Positions 2,556 through 60,889 of a DNA stretch of 64,000 bases are shown one piece after another. Each line of letters starts with the position of its first letter. Positions within the stretch are counted from its first letter, which is position 1. The position numbers were made by a program, and so were the translations under genes. The stretch is from assembly GCA_049296775.1 (NCBI GenBank), contig JBAQTB010000001.1:31491-95490 (forward strand), read 5' to 3'. Source of the DNA: Patescibacteria group bacterium. Lineage in GTDB: Bacteria > Patescibacteriota > Patescibacteriia > UBA9934. The notes beneath the pieces are model-generated. The model was not told where the DNA came from and searched no databases. It worked only from the letters and a program-made list of their open reading frames with translations.

Positions 2556-3518
2556 TTATCTTCGCACATCTTGCCCTATTTCGTCATCTGGGTTCATGTA
2601 AACGCTCTGATCAAAATACGGAATGAGTGGCTCGACACTCAAAGTTCCGCTAGGGGGCACCGCACCAAACCACCTCAAATCCAACACGCGAGTCTCCCCA
2701 GCTCCAAACTCTGGTACAGCTACTTTAGTTAAAGACACCACTGTGGCGCCACGCATCAGTTTGACTAAAAATTCCGGAGACCAGTAAGCGTATGCGGTAC
2801 GATTGGTTAAAGTGACCTGCGAATGGCCGAGCAGCTCATCCCCAACCAATAGGTCCTTAGCGTAAGTCGCCTGATCAACGGTGATATTGGATCGTGACTG
2901 TAAAAATTGCTCCGTGTTTGAGATTATATGTTTATCCACACGGTGCCAGACTTGATTGGTCATGATTAGGCGCAGGCTCCCGGGACGCTGTTCGAAACTA
3001 ACATTTATAGCTGCCAGCAGCCTCTGTTCATTGGGATTCAAGAAACCCGTATAAGTCTCAGTCACCCCACCTTCATAGCCAAAAGCGTAATCAAAAGTGA
3101 CGTACCAATCATCATTTGAATTAGTGACCGGTACGAACACGTCATATTTACCAGGCACCACCGACACTGACCTCACGTCCTGAATATCTAAACCCGTTGG
3201 CGCCAAGCGGGTCACTCCAGCGTGACTAGAGTTAAGATTAGCAAAAATTCCGGCCGTTAATCTGGCATCAGAAAAAGATCCTGACACGATATACATGATC
3301 ACGCCGCCAATAAAAACCAGGAGCAACAAAATATCGACACCGGCCAAAAACCACAGCGCACCCAACTCTAACCTAGGGCGAGCATTCACCATGGCAACGT
3401 CCCGACGGTATCGGCTATCAATCGCCTTATACTCGCCGGAAAGCTTGGTTGGTATTTTTTGTGGCTCCCCCTTCACCATAACTATGTACATTTTATCACA
3501 TTCAGGACTGTACTCCAC
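2556..3518 (-). CDS. Hypothetical membrane-anchored protein with one N-terminal TM segment.
   Basis: 320 aa ORF with a TM helix (LGALWFLAGVDILLLLVFIGGVIMYIV) and no recognisable catalytic motif. Divergent from gyrB. Confidence 0.45.
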   Translation of the reverse strand: MEYSPECDKMYIVMVKGEPQKIPTKLSGEYKAIDSRYRRDVAMVNARPRLELGALWFLAGVDILLLLVFIGGVIMYIVSGSFSDARLTAGIFANLNSSHAGVTRLAPTGLDIQDVRSVSVVPGKYDVFVPVTNSNDDWYVTFDYAFGYEGGVTETYTGFLNPNEQRLLAAINVSFEQRPGSLRLIMTNQVWHRVDKHIISNTEQFLQSRSNITVDQATYAKDLLVGDELLGHSQVTLTNRTAYAYWSPEFLVKLMRGATVVSLTKVAVPEFGAGETRVLDLRWFGAVPPSGTLSVEPLIPYFDQSVYMNPDDEIGQDVRR

Positions 3519-21630: not shown

Positions 21631-23391
21631 TTACTTAATGGTTCCTGCCGCTACGGCCGCAGCAATCAGCTCTGATTGAGCAATCTCTAGTGCTGCTTCT
21701 TGACCGAAGACCTTGATCTGACACGGCTCACCGGCGACTTCTTTCTCTCCGAGTACAATGGTCCAAGGAATTTTTTCAATGGCTGCATTGCGAATTTTCT
21801 TGCCGACCTTTTCACTCGACTCATCTAGCTGAACCCGCAAACCAGCCCCATCCAACTTAGCTCTCAAGTCCGCAGCGAAAGACGCAAACTCATCTGACAC
21901 CGTCACTAACCTAATTTGTTCAGGTGCTAACCACATTGGGAATGCGCCAGCGTAATGTTCAATCATCACCGCCATAAAGCGCTCCAGTGAGCCCAGGATA
22001 GCGCGGTGAATCATAACCGGACGTTTCTTCAAGTTATCAGAATCCACGTACTCAAGCTCAAAGCGCTCTGGCAAATTGAAGTCCAACTGAATTGTCGCTA
22101 ACTGCCACTCTCTGCCAATGGCGTCCTTGGCGATAAAGTCGATCTTAGGTCCATAAAATGCTGCCTCCCCCACTCCCATCTCATAAGTCTGGCCTAGCTC
22201 ATCTAATAACTCTTTCAGCATGCCAACAGAAGTCTCCCAAACCTCAGCACCACCCAAATAAGCTTCTGGTTTAGCTGGATCATTGACAGATAGGCGCAGC
22301 CGCAAAGGCATGTCAAAGGCTTGGTAGAACCGGGTGATGATGTCGTAAATGGCGAGAGACTCAGCTTTGACCTGATCTAACCGGCAAAAAACGTGGGCGT
22401 CGTCTTGGGTAATGGAACGGACACGTGACAACCCCTGGAGCTGACCAGTATTTTCATCACGATACACGGTGGTCACTTCACTAAAGCGCAGTGGCAGATC
22501 GCGATAACTACGCACACGAGAAGCGTAAATCTGAGTGTGGTGCGGACAATTCATGGGCTTCAACACAAAGGTCTCTTCAGACTTTTTGCTGGAAACATGA
22601 AAAATATCATCCGCGAATTTGTCCCAGTGGCCGCTAGTCTTGTATAGATCACTTTTAGCCATGTGCGGAATGGTCACACGTGTGTAACCGTAAGGCTTCA
22701 TGAGTGACCACACAAAATTAACTAGCTGCTCACGCAAAATCGTGCCCTTGGGAGTAAACAGCGGCAAACCTGGACCAACGAGTGGAGAAAAAGTGAATAA
22801 GTCGAGCTCAACTCCGAGCTTACGGTGATCCCGGCGCTTAGCCTCTTCTTGCATAACCAAATACGCATCGAGCTCTGCCTTGGTTACGAAAGCTACGCCG
22901 TAAATACGGGTGAGCTGAGCATTCTTTTCATCGCCACGCCAATAGGCACCAGCGAGTTTGGTGAGCTTAAAAGCTTCTGAGTCGATGTCCTTAGGATTTT
23001 CGATGTGACCGCCACGACAGAGGTCCAGGTAATTTCCAGATTTGTAGAAAGTCAGATTCTGACCATCTTTAGCAAACTCATCAATGAGCTCAGTCTTATA
23101 AGGATTACCAGCGAACTCTTGCCTAGCTTCATCCGCCGTCACATCAATTCGCTCAAAACTCTTCCAAGTCGTCAAAATCTTGCGCATGCGTTTCTCAATC
23201 TTAGGAAGCTCAGTCTCCGAAATCGGAGTGGAGAACTCGAAATCGTAATAAAAACCATCTTCAATGGCCGGACCGATCGTTCGCTTAGCATCTGGGTACA
23301 TCTCGAGCACGGCAGCAGCGAGCAAATGGGCTAACGAGTGGCGATAATGTTCGAGTTCTTGAGAGTTCATAGGTATTGGATCCTGACGCAA
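21631..23391 (-). CDS. thrS: Threonine--tRNA ligase, lacking the N-terminal TGS/N1 domains.
   Basis: The editing-domain HxxxH motif (HYRHSLAHLLA), class II aaRS motifs (FRDE, the GLxR region) and the anticodon-binding C-terminus. The start is TTG at 23391 or ATG at 23370. Confidence 0.9.
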   Translation of the reverse strand: MRQDPIPMNSQELEHYRHSLAHLLAAAVLEMYPDAKRTIGPAIEDGFYYDFEFSTPISETELPKIEKRMRKILTTWKSFERIDVTADEARQEFAGNPYKTELIDEFAKDGQNLTFYKSGNYLDLCRGGHIENPKDIDSEAFKLTKLAGAYWRGDEKNAQLTRIYGVAFVTKAELDAYLVMQEEAKRRDHRKLGVELDLFTFSPLVGPGLPLFTPKGTILREQLVNFVWSLMKPYGYTRVTIPHMAKSDLYKTSGHWDKFADDIFHVSSKKSEETFVLKPMNCPHHTQIYASRVRSYRDLPLRFSEVTTVYRDENTGQLQGLSRVRSITQDDAHVFCRLDQVKAESLAIYDIITRFYQAFDMPLRLRLSVNDPAKPEAYLGGAEVWETSVGMLKELLDELGQTYEMGVGEAAFYGPKIDFIAKDAIGREWQLATIQLDFNLPERFELEYVDSDNLKKRPVMIHRAILGSLERFMAVMIEHYAGAFPMWLAPEQIRLVTVSDEFASFAADLRAKLDGAGLRVQLDESSEKVGKKIRNAAIEKIPWTIVLGEKEVAGEPCQIKVFGQEAALEIAQSELIAAAVAAGTIK

Positions 23392-23394
23392 GGA

Positions 23395-23620
23395 AGGATC
23401 TAGTAATTAGAGTTAAACAAAAACCGACCAAGGCCCTAAACGGACGCTGGTCGGGGTCAAGCTTTAGCTCGACGGTTCCACCCGAATTCCTCGCTCTGTC
23501 ATAGACGGGTCACGGCCGAGTTTCTTGCGATTCTTGCCGACCTCGACCCATCTCTACAGCTCGGGGCGCTTTTATGAATTGTCTTTCGCTCCTGGGTTAG
23601 TAGCCCAATCACTGCGAATA
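23395..23620 (-). promoter_or_regulatory. T-box riboswitch-like leader of thrS (minus strand).
   Basis: On the minus strand GAAUUCGGGUGGAACCGUCG matches the T-box consensus AAUUAGGGUGGNACCGCG. A terminator hairpin follows (CCGACCA...UGGUCGG + UUUUUGUUU, plus 23414..23454). A candidate specifier region is GGGCUACUAACCC, with ACU (Thr) followed by A. Confidence 0.55.
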
Positions 23621-23625
23621 TAGTG

Positions 23626-23654
23626 ATTATAGCGACAGGCTCAGGCCCGGTCAA
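23626..23654 (-). promoter_or_regulatory. Sigma70 promoter driving the thrS leader.
   Basis: On the minus strand: TTGACC, a 17 nt spacer, then TATAAT. Confidence 0.6.
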
Positions 23655-23673
23655 TAGGTGACGGAGACGGTAA

Positions 23674-24867
23674 TTATTCCTTGGGCTCTTCAATGATGAT
23701 CTTAATGTGATCTTGCAAGGTAGGCACGCGCTTCAGCCAGAAAGGCGTAAAAGACACGGACACGTCTTGAATGGCCTCTGAAGCCCGGAGTAAGGTCAAG
23801 ACCTCATGAGGTGCCCTACCCACAAATCTGTCTTTATTTAAGGTTGGAGCATCTTCAGCCAAAATCGAAAGTCCGTCTAGATATACAGTAATCACAGCTT
23901 CCCCATTGGCAGCATCAAGCGCGCTAACTTCCGTACGCATGGTTTGATCATTCACTAAAGACACACGGAAACCGTCTGGAATCTGTTCAGACAAAAGCTT
24001 TTCAGCATAATGCTTAACTTCCAACCTAGGGTAATACACGGCAGTGATCTTCTGCTTTAAGGTCAAAGTAAATGAACCCACTTCAGCACCAACGGCGGAG
24101 TCAGTCGTCTCCGCAACGGTTACGATCTCATAAGATTCGCCGTCTAACTTGGCCCTATCTACACCGGCACTTAATGTCTGTTGGGCCTCAGATAAAATTT
24201 CATCTGACAAGGTCTGAACAGCTGTATCAATATCCGCCTCAGTTAAAACCCGAACATATTGCACGCCGCCAGTCATGGCCGCGACACTCACGCCATAAAT
24301 CTGAGTTTGCTGTGTGGCATTCAAACCAGGAATAGTAAATTTAGAGGCACCAATTTCGCCACCCTTACCGGCGACATCTGCCTTTACAAATACCTCCACC
24401 TGACCATTAGCTGGCACGGTGGCAAGATTCTGCAAACGGTACAAAATCCCTTCTTGAGAAATCAAACGCGTCGTAGCCACGAGCGGTTGATCTTTAGCTG
24501 ATTCGTTAATCAAAGTCACGTAACCACTCGCCTTATTTTCTACCGGACTGGCGCCTTCTGACGGCAAAGTAAAGACGCGACTCTTGGAAAGTTCCGTAGC
24601 AGTCACCAGACCGGCCACCTGGCCTTCAGCAATTGGCTCCGCAATCACATCAATATCCGCTTCAACGTCGATAACCTTAGGATCGGCGACGATTTTAATT
24701 GTAGCTCTAGAGACAGACAGGTACAGGACGCAGAGCAGCAGTAAAAAAGTAATTACCACGAAAGCCACGGCAATATGTTGGTACATACGCAGTGAACGTG
24801 ACAATGGCTTCCTCCCTGCCCCGGCGCGCTCAACACGCTTTGGTGCATTTTTAACCATAGATATCAA
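23674..24867 (-). CDS. Hypothetical membrane-anchored protein (N-terminal TM, large extracytoplasmic domain).
   Basis: 397 aa with a TTG start and one TM helix (IAVAFVVITFLLLLCVLYLSV). The rest is beta-rich and Thr/Val-rich. It lies between dnaE and thrS. Confidence 0.5.
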   Translation of the reverse strand: MISMVKNAPKRVERAGAGRKPLSRSLRMYQHIAVAFVVITFLLLLCVLYLSVSRATIKIVADPKVIDVEADIDVIAEPIAEGQVAGLVTATELSKSRVFTLPSEGASPVENKASGYVTLINESAKDQPLVATTRLISQEGILYRLQNLATVPANGQVEVFVKADVAGKGGEIGASKFTIPGLNATQQTQIYGVSVAAMTGGVQYVRVLTEADIDTAVQTLSDEILSEAQQTLSAGVDRAKLDGESYEIVTVAETTDSAVGAEVGSFTLTLKQKITAVYYPRLEVKHYAEKLLSEQIPDGFRVSLVNDQTMRTEVSALDAANGEAVITVYLDGLSILAEDAPTLNKDRFVGRAPHEVLTLLRASEAIQDVSVSFTPFWLKRVPTLQDHIKIIIEEPKE

Positions 24868-24905: not shown

Positions 24906-27900
24906 CTAATATTTTACATTCGACTCACCGACTACGGCTGCAATTTTGCTAATGGTTTCACGAGTAGCTAACACGCTGTATTCGGTAGCGATCTTCTTGT
25001 CTTCTCCCCCAGAATTCACGACTAAATACACCCTCGTCGCTCCTGGCGAAGTCTTGAGCACATCACGCAAACGCATAATCATGTCATTGCCCGGCTTTTC
25101 CGGCACCACGATATTCAACCCTTCAGCTTTTTTCACGGAATTCAAAGTTTGCAGTTTGGGCGCGGTATCAACCGTTTGACGTTTGGCGACATCTTCCTGC
25201 CAATCACCAGCAATCAACATGCGGCTCAAGTCTGGAATGTCAGCTTCATTAAAGCTGATTAACGAATCCACCAAGACTGACCATTCTTGTGTATCCGAAT
25301 CCTCTCTAGACCTAGCCGAAACTTTTCCGGTCACAAGCACAAAGGCCTCGGGCAGCAATTTATCTCTAACTTTAATGTAAGTCTTAGGGAAAACTACCAT
25401 CTCAAGCACGCTCGTGGGGTCCTCAATGCGTACAAAGGCCATGGGTTCGTTCTTTTTCTTGGTAAAAATCTGCTTGATATTCGTAATCACCCCGGAAACC
25501 TTAACAATATCGCCATCAATCTTGGTCGGGACGTCTTTCAGGGCCGTGGTGTACTGATTAAACTGCTCATAAAATAGCGAGGTCGGATGTGAAGATACGT
25601 ACAAGCCCAACAACTCCTTCTCCCAAGACAAAAGTACGCTTTGCGAAACTGGTGCGGCTGGCTGCAACTCTAACTTGCGCTTGGCCATGGACTCGGTCAT
25701 CTCAAACAAGGAAGATTGGTTGCGATCTTTCTCTGATTGAGCCTGTTTGTTGTACATGACCAACTGATCGATATTCCCCACCAAAGTCACACGATCACCA
25801 AAACGATCCAAAGCGCCACACTTCACCAGAGCTTCCAAAGTCTTACGGTTAAAGGCATGAGAATTAACCCGCGTCAAAAAGTCAGATAGATCCGTGAAAA
25901 GACCGTTATCCTTACGCTCTTTAACAATGATCTCAGCGATTTCACTCCCGACATTCTTAATGGCCTGCAAACCCCAACGTACGTTATTTGTACCCTTCAC
26001 CACCGCAAAACCTGGAAAAGATTCGTTAATGTCCGGCGGGTAAACGCTCAAACCCATGCGGCGACACTCCTCAACCTCAATAGTAATGCGGTCAATGTTG
26101 CCAGAATCAGAATTCATGAGCGCCGCCATGAAACAGTCCGGATAATAAGCCTTGAGGTAAGCCGTTCTGTAAGCAATAGAGGCGTAACACGCCGCATGCG
26201 ACTTGTTAAAACCGTAAGCGGCAAAATCTTCTAATTTCTGGAAGATTTTATTCGCTAGCTCCTCACGGACACCGTTTTTCATGGCACCTTCAACGAATTT
26301 CGTCTTCATCTTGACCATGAGTTCAGCGATCTTCTTACCCATGGCTTTACGCAAAGAATCAGCTTCACCACCAGTGAAACCTGCAATATCCTTGGAGAGT
26401 TGCATCACCTGCTCTTGGTAAACCGGAATGCCGTAAGTTTCCTTAAAGGCATTCTCCATGAGCGGATGATCGTAAATAACTTTTTCGACGCCGTGCTTGC
26501 GCCGAATGTAGCTATCAATAAACTGCATTGGTCCCGGCCTGTACAGGGACACCATAGCAATAATGTCCTCAAAAGCTGAGGGCTGGAGTTCCTTAATGTA
26601 GCGCTTCATGCCGTCTGATTCCAACTGGAATACACCCGTAGTTTCACCGCGACCAAGGAGCGCGAAGGTTTTAGCATCATCAAGCGGCAGGTGGTCCATA
26701 TCCACCACGTCACCAGTCACCGCTTTGATGATCTCTAAAGCATCTTCAATGATCGTTAAGTTAGATAAGCCCAAGAAGTCCATCTTCACCAAACCAGCCG
26801 CCTCAGAGGCGTTCAATGAGTATTGAGTCACCAGCGCCATGTCTTCATGCTGACCCGCCTGCAAAGGCACCCGTTCAACCAAGGGTCTATCACCAATTAC
26901 GATGCCACACGCGTGTTGCGAGGCGTGTCTCGGGTTGCCCTCAAGCTTAATCGCTAAATCAATCACCCGGCGGGTCATGGGGTTACTCTCATACATGATT
27001 CTGAGATCTGGCGACTCCACAATCGCTTCTTTGAGCGGCGTGTGCCGGCCCTGCACCGGCGGCGGCACATTCTTAGCGATTTGATCCGCTTCCTGATAAG
27101 ACAGACCGAAAACTCTGGCCGCATCACGCACGGCGGCGCGTGGCATCAAAGTTCCAAAAGTGATAATGCCCGCCACCCGATCCGCACCGTACTTCTGAGT
27201 GACGTATTCCAACACCTTGCCGCGACCACGGTCTGCGAAATCAGTATCGATATCTGGAATGGAGACACGGTCAGGGTTTAAGAAACGCTCAAACAACAGA
27301 CCATAACGCAAAGGATCGAGGTCGGTAATATGCAAGACGTAAGCCACAATTGATCCAGCCGCCGAACCACGACCAGGCCCAACCAAAATATTATGTTCCT
27401 TGGCCCAGTTAATGTAATCCTGCACGATCAAGAAATATGAAGAGAAACCCATCTTACAAATGGTGCTGTACTCAAACTCAAAACGTTCCATGACATGAGC
27501 TGGGACAGGATCGCTGTACCGTTCTTTCAAGCCCTCCAAACATAGGTCACGCATGTATTCGTTATCTGTCTTGCCATCTGGCAAAGGGAAATTTGGCAAA
27601 AAGTTTTTACCCAACTCCATTTCAAACTGAATCCGGTCAGCAATACGCCGTGTATTCAGCAACGCCTCTGGTACATCCGCAAAGTACGCCATGATCTCTT
27701 CTGGCGTATCAAAAGACAGGTCAATCTCTTCCGTGCTAGTCCGACGGTATTCTTCCAGCGTACGACCGCGCTGAATACATAACTGCGCCTCATAAGCCTC
27801 GCGATCCTCTGTGTTCAGGTAAAACGCATTCTTAGTGGCGACTAGCGGACAACCAGTTTTTGCAGCCAAGACCTTAAACGCCTCGTTCACCTCAACCTGA

Positions 27901-28454
27901 CGCGGCATGTCAGGGTGATGAATCAATTCCAAAAAGAAATTATCCTGACCAAAGATGTCTTGATACTGACGAATCAAATCCTCGGCCTTAGTCAGGTCAC
28001 CATTCGCAGCCGCCGCCGGCACTTCCCCACTCACTGCACCTGACAAAGCAATCAAGCCTTTAGAGTGAGCTTTTAAAAATTCTTTATCGACCCTAGGTTT
28101 GTAATAAAAACCCTCCAGGAATGCCGCCGTCAAAATTTTAGACAAATTTCTGTAACCCTCCTCAGTTTCTACTAATAAGACTAGACGATACGGCCGGTCA
28201 TCTAACCTGGCGCGCTTGTCTGTCATGCGGTGCTGAGCCACGTAAATATCCGCTCCAATGATTGGCTTGATCTCTGCCTCCTTGCAAGCTTTCCAAAACT
28301 CAACTGCACCGTAAATAGCACCGTTGTCAGTTAGAGCCAAAGCATTCATGCCCAACTCTTTGGCACGCTTAACCAAAGCTTTTGGCTTAGGCAAAGCCTC
28401 CAGCAAAGAATAGTGCGAATGCACGTGAAGATAAACAAAATCCTTGGCATCCAT
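24906..28454 (-). CDS. dnaE: DNA polymerase III alpha subunit.
   Basis: 1182 aa with an N-terminal PHP domain (HVHSHYSLLEALPKP), the polymerase core and a C-terminal OB fold. Confidence 0.95.
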   Translation of the reverse strand: MDAKDFVYLHVHSHYSLLEALPKPKALVKRAKELGMNALALTDNGAIYGAVEFWKACKEAEIKPIIGADIYVAQHRMTDKRARLDDRPYRLVLLVETEEGYRNLSKILTAAFLEGFYYKPRVDKEFLKAHSKGLIALSGAVSGEVPAAAANGDLTKAEDLIRQYQDIFGQDNFFLELIHHPDMPRQVEVNEAFKVLAAKTGCPLVATKNAFYLNTEDREAYEAQLCIQRGRTLEEYRRTSTEEIDLSFDTPEEIMAYFADVPEALLNTRRIADRIQFEMELGKNFLPNFPLPDGKTDNEYMRDLCLEGLKERYSDPVPAHVMERFEFEYSTICKMGFSSYFLIVQDYINWAKEHNILVGPGRGSAAGSIVAYVLHITDLDPLRYGLLFERFLNPDRVSIPDIDTDFADRGRGKVLEYVTQKYGADRVAGIITFGTLMPRAAVRDAARVFGLSYQEADQIAKNVPPPVQGRHTPLKEAIVESPDLRIMYESNPMTRRVIDLAIKLEGNPRHASQHACGIVIGDRPLVERVPLQAGQHEDMALVTQYSLNASEAAGLVKMDFLGLSNLTIIEDALEIIKAVTGDVVDMDHLPLDDAKTFALLGRGETTGVFQLESDGMKRYIKELQPSAFEDIIAMVSLYRPGPMQFIDSYIRRKHGVEKVIYDHPLMENAFKETYGIPVYQEQVMQLSKDIAGFTGGEADSLRKAMGKKIAELMVKMKTKFVEGAMKNGVREELANKIFQKLEDFAAYGFNKSHAACYASIAYRTAYLKAYYPDCFMAALMNSDSGNIDRITIEVEECRRMGLSVYPPDINESFPGFAVVKGTNNVRWGLQAIKNVGSEIAEIIVKERKDNGLFTDLSDFLTRVNSHAFNRKTLEALVKCGALDRFGDRVTLVGNIDQLVMYNKQAQSEKDRNQSSLFEMTESMAKRKLELQPAAPVSQSVLLSWEKELLGLYVSSHPTSLFYEQFNQYTTALKDVPTKIDGDIVKVSGVITNIKQIFTKKKNEPMAFVRIEDPTSVLEMVVFPKTYIKVRDKLLPEAFVLVTGKVSARSREDSDTQEWSVLVDSLISFNEADIPDLSRMLIAGDWQEDVAKRQTVDTAPKLQTLNSVKKAEGLNIVVPEKPGNDMIMRLRDVLKTSPGATRVYLVVNSGGEDKKIATEYSVLATRETISKIAAVVGESNVKY

Positions 28455-36226: not shown

Positions 36227-36302
36227 TGGTGGACTCGATCGGAATCGAACCGACATCTTCAAGGTGACGAACCTGCTAGGTTACCATTAACCCCACGAGC
36301 CC
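36227..36302 (-). tRNA. tRNA-Thr(CGU) candidate with a non-canonical anticodon stem.
   Basis: 76 nt with an encoded CCA. It has a canonical acceptor stem (one G-U), a D-arm with G18G19, a GTTCGATTC T-loop and U33. Anticodon loop UUCGUCA gives anticodon CGU. In my reading positions 27-43 and 28-42 are mismatched (G.G, C.U) and position 37 is C. Confidence 0.5.
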
Positions 36303-59743: not shown

Positions 59744-60889
59744 CTAGTGATGATGAGCTAAACGTTTGGTAGGCGTAGCAGAGGCAGGACGAGCCAACGA
59801 GCCAAAAACTGCGGCCGCGAAAGCAGTGGCAATAGGCACAGCTAGCATTAAGGCGGTACCACCGACTAAAGCCCGCAGCACCTCTTCCACGATATTTTCA
59901 TTATTCAAGATAATCCAGAGCGGTGGATGCTCTGGCAAGGCAAAGAGCAGAAAGAGTGGAAAAGAGGCGCCAGCGTACGCCAACACCAACGTATTCACCA
60001 AGGCGGCAATATGGTCCCTACCCACCGAAATCCCCCGCTTATACAACTCCATGGCCCCTAGGCTAGTGTTGGCGCGGCTAATCTCATCCACGGCCGCCAC
60101 CTGAGCGGTAGTCACGTCATCCAAGACACCAAGAGAGCCCAGGATAATGCCACCAAGCAATAAGCCACGGAGATCAAGAGTAGGCAAATAACTCAGCTGT
60201 AAAAATACCGCTTCTTCTGTACCTGTACCGGCTAAACTCGCAAAACCTACCGCCAATAAAGCTAGAGCAAAGGCAGCCACCAGCGCCACCAGGGTAGCTA
60301 CGAGTGCTACGTAGGAGCGCCTGTTGAAACCGTGTGCCAGCAAAATCGACGTCACGGCAATAGCGCATGAACCAATGAAAGAGATCAGGATCGGGCTATC
60401 CCCGGCAATAATGCGTGGCACCACAAATAGCATCAAAATCAACAAGCTCACAGATAATCCGAGCAGTGACCCAGCGCCACGCATGCGGCCAAAGGCAATG
60501 GCGGTCAAGGCAAAGATCACTACGTAAATCAGGATTGTCGGCAAACGATAACTATCTAAGATGTAATAATTCGAACCTCTCGCATCAATGACCTCCGCCA
60601 TGACCACGCGGCTGCCTTTAGCCAGTCTCTGATCCCGGTAACTGGCGGAAGAAAAAGTGTAAGTCACCGTTATGGCTTGCCCCTCATCTTCTCCAGATAA
60701 AATTTCAACCAAAACTACCTGACTCGCATCATCAAACGGAGCGGCCGAGCCAGGATGATCTTCCATGACTTCAATCACCTTGCCACGCGCGTACTCCTGA
60801 CTATCAATTGGCTCGTCCTGAGCTAAGGCTAACGGTGCCCAACCAAAACCTGCTACCAGCAACAACAGCCCTAACAAAAAATGACGCAT
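59744..60889 (-). CDS. YibE/F-family membrane protein embedded in the zinc-uptake operon.
   Basis: 381 aa with a signal/TM segment, a soluble N-domain, then a polytopic YibE/F-like core (LGLSVSLLILMLFVVPRIIAGDSPILISFIGSCAIAV...). The C-terminus ends with HHH. Confidence 0.65.
   Translation of the reverse strand: MRHFLLGLLLLVAGFGWAPLALAQDEPIDSQEYARGKVIEVMEDHPGSAAPFDDASQVVLVEILSGEDEGQAITVTYTFSSASYRDQRLAKGSRVVMAEVIDARGSNYYILDSYRLPTILIYVVIFALTAIAFGRMRGAGSLLGLSVSLLILMLFVVPRIIAGDSPILISFIGSCAIAVTSILLAHGFNRRSYVALVATLVALVAAFALALLAVGFASLAGTGTEEAVFLQLSYLPTLDLRGLLLGGIILGSLGVLDDVTTAQVAAVDEISRANTSLGAMELYKRGISVGRDHIAALVNTLVLAYAGASFPLFLLFALPEHPPLWIILNNENIVEEVLRALVGGTALMLAVPIATAFAAAVFGSLARPASATPTKRLAHHH

Follow-up and report, generated by a model that had tools for sequence, protein, structure and literature searches.

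The leader of thrS, the gene for threonyl-tRNA synthetase (ThrRS), in a stretch of 64,000 nucleotides (nt) from a Patescibacteria group bacterium (GenBank assembly GCA_049296775.1, contig JBAQTB010000001.1, positions 31,491 to 95,490; in the following, the window) is predicted to be a tRNA-Thr-sensing T-box riboswitch of minimal architecture which controls thrS by transcription attenuation, and we put the probability of this reading at about 0.85. The elements of sequence and structure, the mutual exclusivity of the two helices at the 3' end, the conservation and covariation of the leader and its homology to leaders that Rfam recognises as T-boxes were observed or computed, and since folding, covarying homologous leaders and the Rfam matches that reach the window by way of these homologues all agree, they support the assignment. 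Judged from the sequence and its homologues, the leader is very probably a real T-box in which an ultrashort Stem I would drive the attenuation of transcription on thrS. The original prediction for this region, a T-box leader with its own promoter, ACU in a hairpin loop, a UGGA bulge and an antiterminator/terminator switch, is thus upheld by three lines of evidence, with the corrections given below.

Architecture of the thrS leader

The leader lies on the minus strand at positions 23415-23654 and comprises, in this order, promoter, Stem I, linker, Stem III, AA, antiterminator and terminator (Table 1), within an intergenic region of 303 nt that reaches from the stop codon of a 397-aa open reading frame (ORF; 23674) to the thrS ATG (23370). 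The untranslated region had been described beforehand as 280 nt long and as containing a promoter, a T-box core and a terminator; the contents stand, the length does not, and the core, which had been placed about 150 nt downstream of the promoter, was found ~140 nt downstream of the -10 box. With GGGUGGAACCG (23483-23473), the core agrees with the T-box consensus at the claimed 11 of 11 positions and is the sole exact match on either strand of the window, and a structural scan of the whole window, in which a UGGNACC bulge had to be accompanied by A1, A2 and a U-run further downstream, likewise returned the thrS site alone. A second candidate T-box at 59854-59864 of the minus strand (CGGUGGUACCG, one mismatch) was rejected as a chance match inside a 381-aa membrane-protein ORF (59744-60889).

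Table 1. Features of the thrS leader and of thrS in the window (positions in the window)
Feature	Position	Strand	Description
Sigma-70-type promoter	23626..23654	-	-35 TTGACC 23654-23649, 17-nt spacer, -10 TATAAT 23631-23626
Ultrashort Stem I, 34 nt	23585..23618	-	UUCGC-AGU-GA-UUGGG-[CUACUAA]-CCCAG-GA-GCGAA
Specifier loop CU-ACU-AA	23597..23603	-	Thr codon ACU 23601-23599, then purine A
Single-stranded linker AAGACAAUUCAUAAAAGCG	23567..23584	-	Ends in purine string RRRxG (AAGCG, 23571-23567) before Stem III
Stem III, 78 nt	23489..23566	-	Single long hairpin, -34.8 kcal/mol, z = -3.2; then AA 23488-23487
Antiterminator	23451..23485	-	A1 UCGGG 23485-23481; bulge UGGAACC 23480-23474; A2; A1' CCCGA 23455-23451
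Intrinsic terminator	23415..23454	-	Hairpin 23454-23424 and U-tract UUUUUGUUU 23423-23415
Small hairpin GAUCCU-UCCUUGCGUC-AGGAUC	23379..23400	-	Between terminator and thrS start codon
thrS	21631..23370	-	579-aa ThrRS without N-terminal TGS domain

The promoter, present with exactly the two boxes and the spacer that had been predicted, matches the consensus at 11 of 12 positions and is the sole promoter-like site which the promoter scan found within 23000-24200, at a threshold at which about one chance site is expected in that interval. Its support comes therefore not from the scan threshold but from the near-perfect match and from promoters at the same position in the five closest relatives (L161-L165; TTGACC/TTGACA-17-TATAGT/TATCAT), where the distance from AUUCGC is the same as in the window. 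Transcription probably starts near 23619-23621, 3-5 nt ahead of Stem I.

In the 3' part of the leader, the A2 helix of the antiterminator (GUCGAGC-UAAA-GCUUGAC, 23473-23456) has 7 bp closed by G23473-C23456, and the antiterminator as a whole folds with -12.7 to -14.5 kcal/mol. The terminator hairpin, CCGACCAG.GUCC-GUUUA-GGGC.UUGGUCGG, reaches -20.0 kcal/mol (z = -3.96) and stands, as had been claimed, just before the start codon, with its U-tract 45 nt ahead of the ATG; a consensus terminator scan did not report it because its stem has internal mismatches. The 5' arm of the terminator uses CCGA 23454-23451, i.e., four of the five A1' bases, so that terminator and antiterminator are mutually exclusive; the fold check proposed together with the original prediction gave a positive answer in this respect. 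Between leaders the terminator shows compensatory changes in both of its helical parts (CCGACCAG/UUGGUCGG vs CCCGACGUUGCC/GGCGGCGUCGGG, and GUCC/GGGC vs GUCU/AGAC). A terminator with an alternative upstream pairing would also be expected if thrS were controlled by ribosome-mediated attenuation via a Thr-rich leader peptide, and a 64-aa ORF overlaps the region; however, no run of Thr codons occurs in any reading frame of the leader and the Rfam family Thr_leader has no match in the window, so that this explanation retains a practically negligible probability.

Upstream of the antiterminator, the flanks of the 5'-RRRxG-Stem III-AA-3' arrangement are present at the positions given in Table 1, and the end of the linker, Stem III, the AA and the antiterminator fit the discriminator layout described in the review PMC7583486, from which the definition of the RRRxG purine string was taken. 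Among 21 thrS leaders, the AA after Stem III is found in at least 90%. The 78-nt hairpin is taken to be the variable Stem III because relatives carry hairpins of 13-56 nt and of unrelated sequence at the same position, and on the same ground it was rejected as a candidate for Stem I or Stem II. This bears directly on the view that the leader is a conventional long-Stem-I T-box, with the 78-nt hairpin as Stem I, AGAGA 23556-23552 as the AG bulge, ACA 23499-23497 as the specifier and an unrelated 5' hairpin. The 78-nt hairpin does contain AGAGA as well as ACA followed by G on its 3' side, and it is unusually stable (z = -3.2), but its flanks AAGCG and AA mark the position of Stem III, no Stem III would be left, the 13-56-nt hairpins of the closest relatives have neither AGAGA nor ACA, and RF00230 finds no Stem I there. 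A long Stem I at this place is thus extremely improbable.

Preceding Stem III, three of the close relatives (L162, L164 and L165) share a conserved form of the linker, GACAAUYYAUAAAAG(N)G, and RF00230 aligns the homologous linker of L164 (AAAAAGAG) to the same region of the model. The ultrashort Stem I at the 5' end of the predicted T-box is built from a C-stem (UUCGC/GCGAA), a kink-turn (K-turn), a 5-bp helix (UUGGG/CCCAG) and a 7-nt terminal loop. The K-turn, as tested at the level of the sequence, has a 3-nt bulge AGU and tandem G.A pairs (GA 23610-23609 with GA 23591-23590), and agrees with what RF00230 gives as consensus at the base of Stem I (gC-gaUGAa-agGG...CCcu-gGA-Gc). The loop presents ACU followed by A, as had been noticed beforehand, in the layout Y-U-NNN-A-A of an anticodon loop. 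This codon matches the amino acid of the regulated gene, it precedes a purine, and its register relative to the GA of the K-turn is the same as in the RF00230 consensus and in L167, a relative with a long Stem I. The further check proposed at the outset, namely for a specifier in an internal loop of Stem I accompanied by an AG bulge and a distal loop, gave a different picture: the specifier sits in the terminal loop, and Stem I consists of the K-turn and the 5-bp helix.

With its 5-bp stem and 7-nt loop, the specifier hairpin looks like an anticodon arm, and the gene concerned is thrS. In Escherichia coli, the ThrRS protein binds, at the ribosome-binding site of thrS, to a translational operator that mimics the anticodon of tRNA-Thr, and an autoregulation of this kind, with ThrRS binding to a tRNA-like hairpin in its own leader, would account for such a structure. 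The two systems have in common the regulation of thrS and the anticodon-arm-like hairpin. However, the loop CUACUAA shows the codon ACU and not a Thr anticodon (NGU), the hairpin lies 227 nt upstream of the AUG and not at the ribosome-binding site, and the UGGAACC bulge and the antiterminator/terminator pair, which set the leader apart from the E. coli operator, would be left unexplained; autoregulation by the protein is therefore considered very improbable.

Conservation in close relatives

The same leader is kept in the five closest relatives, L161-L165, whose ThrRS sequences are 89, 87, 86, 82 and 80% identical to that of the window. Their specifier loops read CU-ACC-AA or CC-ACC-AA, and they also keep the promoter, the K-turn, the linker, the AA, the UGGAACC bulge and a covarying terminator. 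Across these six clade members, 96.7% of the cells of the Stem I alignment are paired. Both double changes belong to the window, which has UUGGG/CCCAG where the relatives have UCGGA/UCCGG, corresponding to two compensatory changes. The bulge of the K-turn is variable among the six (AGU, GAC, AUU, UGU, AGC), the GA pairs are invariant. Stem III, in turn, ranges from 13 nt in L164 to 78 nt in the window and is unrelated in sequence from leader to leader; the spacer ahead of the start codon likewise varies freely among the five relatives.

A more distant relative, L167 (Candidatus Uhrbacteria, GCA_016209325.1, 75% ThrRS identity), has a nearly identical discriminator (AAUUCGGGUGGAACCGUC) and the same distance from codon to K-turn, together with a Stem I of full length, in which ACC lies in an internal loop and which has both a distal loop and an AGAGA bulge.

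Other relatives with 69-77% ThrRS identity have no T-box leader (L001, L081/L168, L166, L169 and L170), and the presence of the leader is accordingly patchy within the lineage. In L001, only ~70 nt are kept at 2900-3000, with AAUGGUACCGUAUGGAGUAC and a terminator, and the stretch is possibly a T-box remnant. In L164, at ~50-75 near the contig end and ~210 nt upstream of the thrS T-box, a second T-box-like core was seen (GGGGUGGAACCGC), which could be either a tandem element or coding sequence.

T-box leaders upstream of thrS in other Patescibacteria

Among 161 thrS upstream regions collected from genome and metagenome scans, 24 contain the T-box core, always with UGGA, and 13 of these 24 core-bearing leaders have a hairpin with a 7-nt loop of the form NN-ACN-AA. 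The metagenome-assembled genomes (MAGs) that carry such leaders are labelled Kerfeldbacteria, Parcubacteria, Falkowbacteria, Saccharibacteria and others. Altogether, this loop format is present in 16 other thrS leaders of the candidate phyla radiation (CPR) besides that of the window, and ACN occupies loop positions 3-5 in 17 of 17 terminal-loop hairpins, at a background rate of 0.043 such hairpins per 330 nt. T-boxes upstream of thrS appear from these sequences to be common in Patescibacteria, in MAGs labelled Uhrbacteria, Kerfeldbacteria, Falkowbacteria, Parcubacteria and Saccharibacteria.

In the 17 leaders, the helix beneath the specifier loop is 92% paired compared to 54% in shuffles, with double changes in six of six pairs, and its covariation score is 1.02 as opposed to 0.27 for shuffled alignments (reached by none of 500 shuffles) and 0.04-0.21 for slid registers. 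For A1 and A2 together, 94.7% pairing was obtained across 21 thrS leaders (73.7% shuffled), with a covariation of 0.70 vs 0.29 (again 0/500). The percentages of pairing are somewhat favoured by the fact that hairpins and A1' registers were chosen partly by pairing; given the slid-register controls and the background rate, the covariation signal is nevertheless real. These figures are based on in-register alignments of the single modules and not on a covariance model of the whole leader, which was given up because the variable Stem III came out misaligned in MAFFT, with A1' displaced by one column from one sub-clade to another.

The same data bear on whether the leader is a decayed T-box, in which the truncated Stem I no longer binds tRNA and which acts as a constitutive attenuator or under some other control such as a protein or nucleoside triphosphate levels. 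The leader indeed has no elbow platform, no Stem II and no G.U sensor, and it has been lost in relatives with 69-77% ThrRS identity and is hence dispensable in the lineage. However, the short Stem I has been kept with compensatory changes, and in 17 leaders from several CPR classes the loop always consists of a Thr codon and AA, in contrast to Stem III and the spacers, which diverge completely. A relic would not be expected to hold ACN in an invariant loop register, and decay is therefore judged unlikely.

A second layout of CPR thrS T-boxes was encountered in L006, L007, L099, L105, L108 and L085, where the terminal-loop specifier hairpin, together with one or two more hairpins upstream of Stem III, lies within a helix CAGAGAUU/AAUCUG. 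In most of them, A2 still has the G.U pair at its base.

Observations that weigh against a T-box, and the performance of RF00230

Several observations speak against reading the leader of the window as a T-box. RF00230, with a gathering score of 93 bits in the Rfam copy used, gave no match on the whole window at that score and none on 23300-23750 alone even at E <= 10; on the 3' half, it aligned the antiterminator only (10.3 bits, E = 2). No elbow platform (AG bulge and distal loop) was found in the leader, where Stem I ends in the specifier loop, and neither a Stem II S-turn nor a IIA/B pseudoknot was found, 14-20 unpaired nt lying between Stems I and III; at least one of elbow platform and Stem II is treated as necessary in the literature (PMC7583486). 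The specifier hairpin by itself is thermodynamically unremarkable (z = -0.45), and its codon is ACU as opposed to the ACC of all close relatives, which implies a weaker wobble pairing. A2 is closed by G-C and not by the conserved G.U pair, the clade having G-C, U-A or C-G at this place. Finally, the only tRNA-Thr of the window has A73, in contrast to the U73 predicted from the UGGA bulge.

An Rfam search with this family had been proposed as a check of the original prediction, with the lack of a significant match to be counted against it, and no significant match was obtained on the leader. The failure can be ascribed to the missing long Stem I and to the 78-nt Stem III, since the discriminator itself is present: model positions 184-216 align to 23487-23452, which is exactly the antiterminator. 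In the homologues the model reaches further. L167 is aligned end to end with 31.4 bits (E = 0.0013) and with Stem II and IIA/B deleted, in a search that gave no match for L161-L165. For the discriminator half of L164, which has a Stem III of 13 nt, RF00230 is the top match among 4227 families (20.6 bits, E = 0.0027), in a 5'-truncated alignment that spans the linker, Stem III, AA, A1, bulge, A2 and A1'.

At the gathering score, RF00230 reported none of 19 loci tested. In E-value mode it scored the Chloroflexi leaders, which are thrS T-boxes with a full Stem I, at 27-60 bits and one CPR leader at 36 bits; with 31-36 bits for CPR, all of these fall far under the 93-bit gathering score, and T-boxes outside the Firmicutes are therefore largely unreported at the curated threshold.

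As regards the closing pair of A2, the conserved G.U is held to be the principal steric sensor for the aminoacyl group (PMC7583486). Across 19 distinct leaders the pair is GC in nine, GU in seven and something else in three.

The tRNA partner and a proposed mechanism

Within the long ORFs of the window, ACU and ACC make up 64% of the Thr codons. The GGU isoacceptor is on this basis expected to be the main tRNA-Thr and is the likely effector of the leader. The sole tRNA-Thr of the window (36227-36302, minus strand) has the anticodon CGU and, as already pointed out in the original prediction, the discriminator base A73. Since tRNA-Thr(CGU) matches neither the specifier nor the bulge, it is not the tRNA expected to act as effector, and its A73 need not count against the model. 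None of the 60 loci scanned, from CPR and the nearest relatives, contained a tRNA-Thr, and the GGU isoacceptor lies outside the window. The tRNA-Thr(CGU) is atypical in itself: it scores 41.7 bits against the tRNA model, has an encoded CCA, and its anticodon stem has either three standard pairs with a 7-nt loop UUCGUCA (C37) or four pairs with an 8-nt loop.

In the mechanism proposed here, the first 34 nt would fold into the K-turn and the 5-bp helix with its 7-nt loop, which would show ACU and then A to the anticodon of tRNA-Thr for loop-loop pairing, most likely to that of the GGU isoacceptor with a G34.U wobble. The K-turn and the linker of 14-20 nt would direct the discriminator, i.e., AAGCG, Stem III, AA and the antiterminator, to the acceptor end of the tRNA, where the UGGA of the bulge would pair with the 3' UCCA of uncharged tRNA-Thr. 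This pairing would stabilise the antiterminator (~-14 kcal/mol) against the terminator (~-20 kcal/mol) and allow read-through into thrS. If the tRNA were charged, the antiterminator would lack this support, so that the terminator would form and transcription would end at UUUUUGUUU. Termination should be the default state, since the terminator is the more stable of the two structures.

Binding of the tRNA, the sensing of its charge and a sufficient affinity in spite of the absent elbow platform and Stem II are inferred. We lean towards the view that the leader represents a natural two-contact T-box, in which the specifier hairpin and the NCCA-binding discriminator, together with the K-turn and a short linker, may suffice for sensing the charge of tRNA during transcription in the absence of elbow platform, Stem II and G.U sensor. 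A fairly G-C-rich pairing of ACC with GGU could possibly compensate for the absent Stem II, by analogy with the argument advanced in PMC7583486 for why glyQS, with its G-C-rich codon-anticodon pairing, does without it. Lengthening Stem III of an engineered ileS T-box by 11 bp raised its affinity for tRNA ~6-fold, and a long Stem III might, by the same reasoning, also be compensatory here, the window having the weaker ACU codon and the longest Stem III.

Relation to known T-boxes

With the class I transcriptional T-boxes (RF00230), the leader shares the K-turn at the base of Stem I, a specifier that is followed by a purine and matches the aminoacyl-tRNA synthetase gene, a linker, the RRRxG-Stem III-AA arrangement, an antiterminator with a 7-nt UGGNACC bulge and an overlapping intrinsic terminator, and with the glyQS T-box it shares the lack of Stem II and of IIA/B. 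It differs from class I in having a Stem I of 34 nt with neither a specifier internal loop nor an S-turn, with no AG bulge/distal-loop platform and with the specifier in the terminal loop, in having a G-C instead of a G.U closing pair at A2, in escaping detection by RF00230, and in belonging to a host from the Patescibacteria and not the Firmicutes. In general, transcriptional T-boxes need a long Stem I with an elbow platform, and Stem II is essential if Stem I is truncated (PMC7583486).

A short helical Stem I with a terminal-loop specifier and without an elbow platform is found again in the ultrashort-Stem-I ileS T-boxes of Actinobacteria (Sherwood, Grundy and Henkin 2015, via PMC7583486; bioRxiv 10.1101/2023.02.28.530422). 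According to the latter source, the known members are translational, with a sequestrator and an antisequestrator, are confined to ileS and tRNA-Ile, and need a Stem II S-turn and a IIA/B pseudoknot. The thrS leader, in contrast, ends in an intrinsic terminator and its U-tract, carries a Thr codon ahead of thrS, shows a linker of 14-20 nt in place of Stem II and belongs to a host from another phylum.

The long-Stem-I thrS T-boxes of Candidatus Uhrbacteria (L167) and Chloroflexi (L058, L064, L066) regulate the same gene and have the same UGGA bulge. In L167 the likeness extends to the flanks of the K-turn (UCGC-NNN-GA ... G-GA-GCGAA), the register of the codon and the near-identical discriminator. 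Unlike the window, all four retain a full Stem I, complete with distal loop and AGAGA bulge, and hold the specifier in an internal loop, and RF00230 scores them at 27-60 bits.

In the literature searched, which comprised few subscription papers, nothing was found on a T-box in Patescibacteria, the candidate phyla radiation, Saccharibacteria or Parcubacteria. In a perspective on Patescibacteria from 2024, riboswitches figure solely as a prospective tool, and in TBDB the class II model was searched in Actinobacteria only, RF00230 being used otherwise. The T-box mechanism as such is familiar, but an ultrashort Stem I combined with a terminator, with thrS, with the lack of Stem II and with a CPR host is undescribed in the literature searched, an earlier description being possible.

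The thrS gene and its neighbourhood

The ThrRS encoded downstream of the leader has the tRNA_SAD, class II core and anticodon-binding domains only and lacks the TGS domain, in agreement with the earlier description of thrS as domain-truncated. Its start codon, ATG 23370, agrees with homologues of 578-582 aa. NCBI records an identical protein for a MAG of the Patescibacteria group, relatives with 67-75% identity are named Candidatus Uhrbacteria, and the nearest named genomes in a species-level collection also belong to the CPR, so that the CPR-like lineage which had been considered beforehand is confirmed.

Between terminator and start codon, the small hairpin at 23379-23400 contains AGGA 10 nt ahead of the AUG, paired with UCCU, and from its sequence it might mask a ribosome-binding site. 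The hairpin is shared with L163 (1170-1191) and absent in L161, L162 and L164; as it is unique within the window, a dispersed repeat was ruled out.

Directly upstream of the thrS leader, the 397-aa ORF (23674-24867, minus strand) has no Pfam match. It is syntenic in L161-L163 and L165, and upstream of it lies dnaE (24906-28454).

Implications

If functional, the leader and its relatives would have the smallest natural T-box layout, Stem I through A1' taking up ~110 nt in L164, and would pose the mechanistic question of how a tRNA is captured fast enough during transcription by two contacts only. Should the two-contact reading be true, the accepted rule that transcriptional T-boxes require a long Stem I would have exceptions, and current annotation would overlook a class of T-boxes in the CPR. 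No CPR thrS T-box was reported by RF00230 at the gathering score, which implies that regulatory RNA is under-annotated in these reduced genomes. A compact tRNA-responsive switch of this kind could, in addition, serve as a gene-control part in Patescibacteria.

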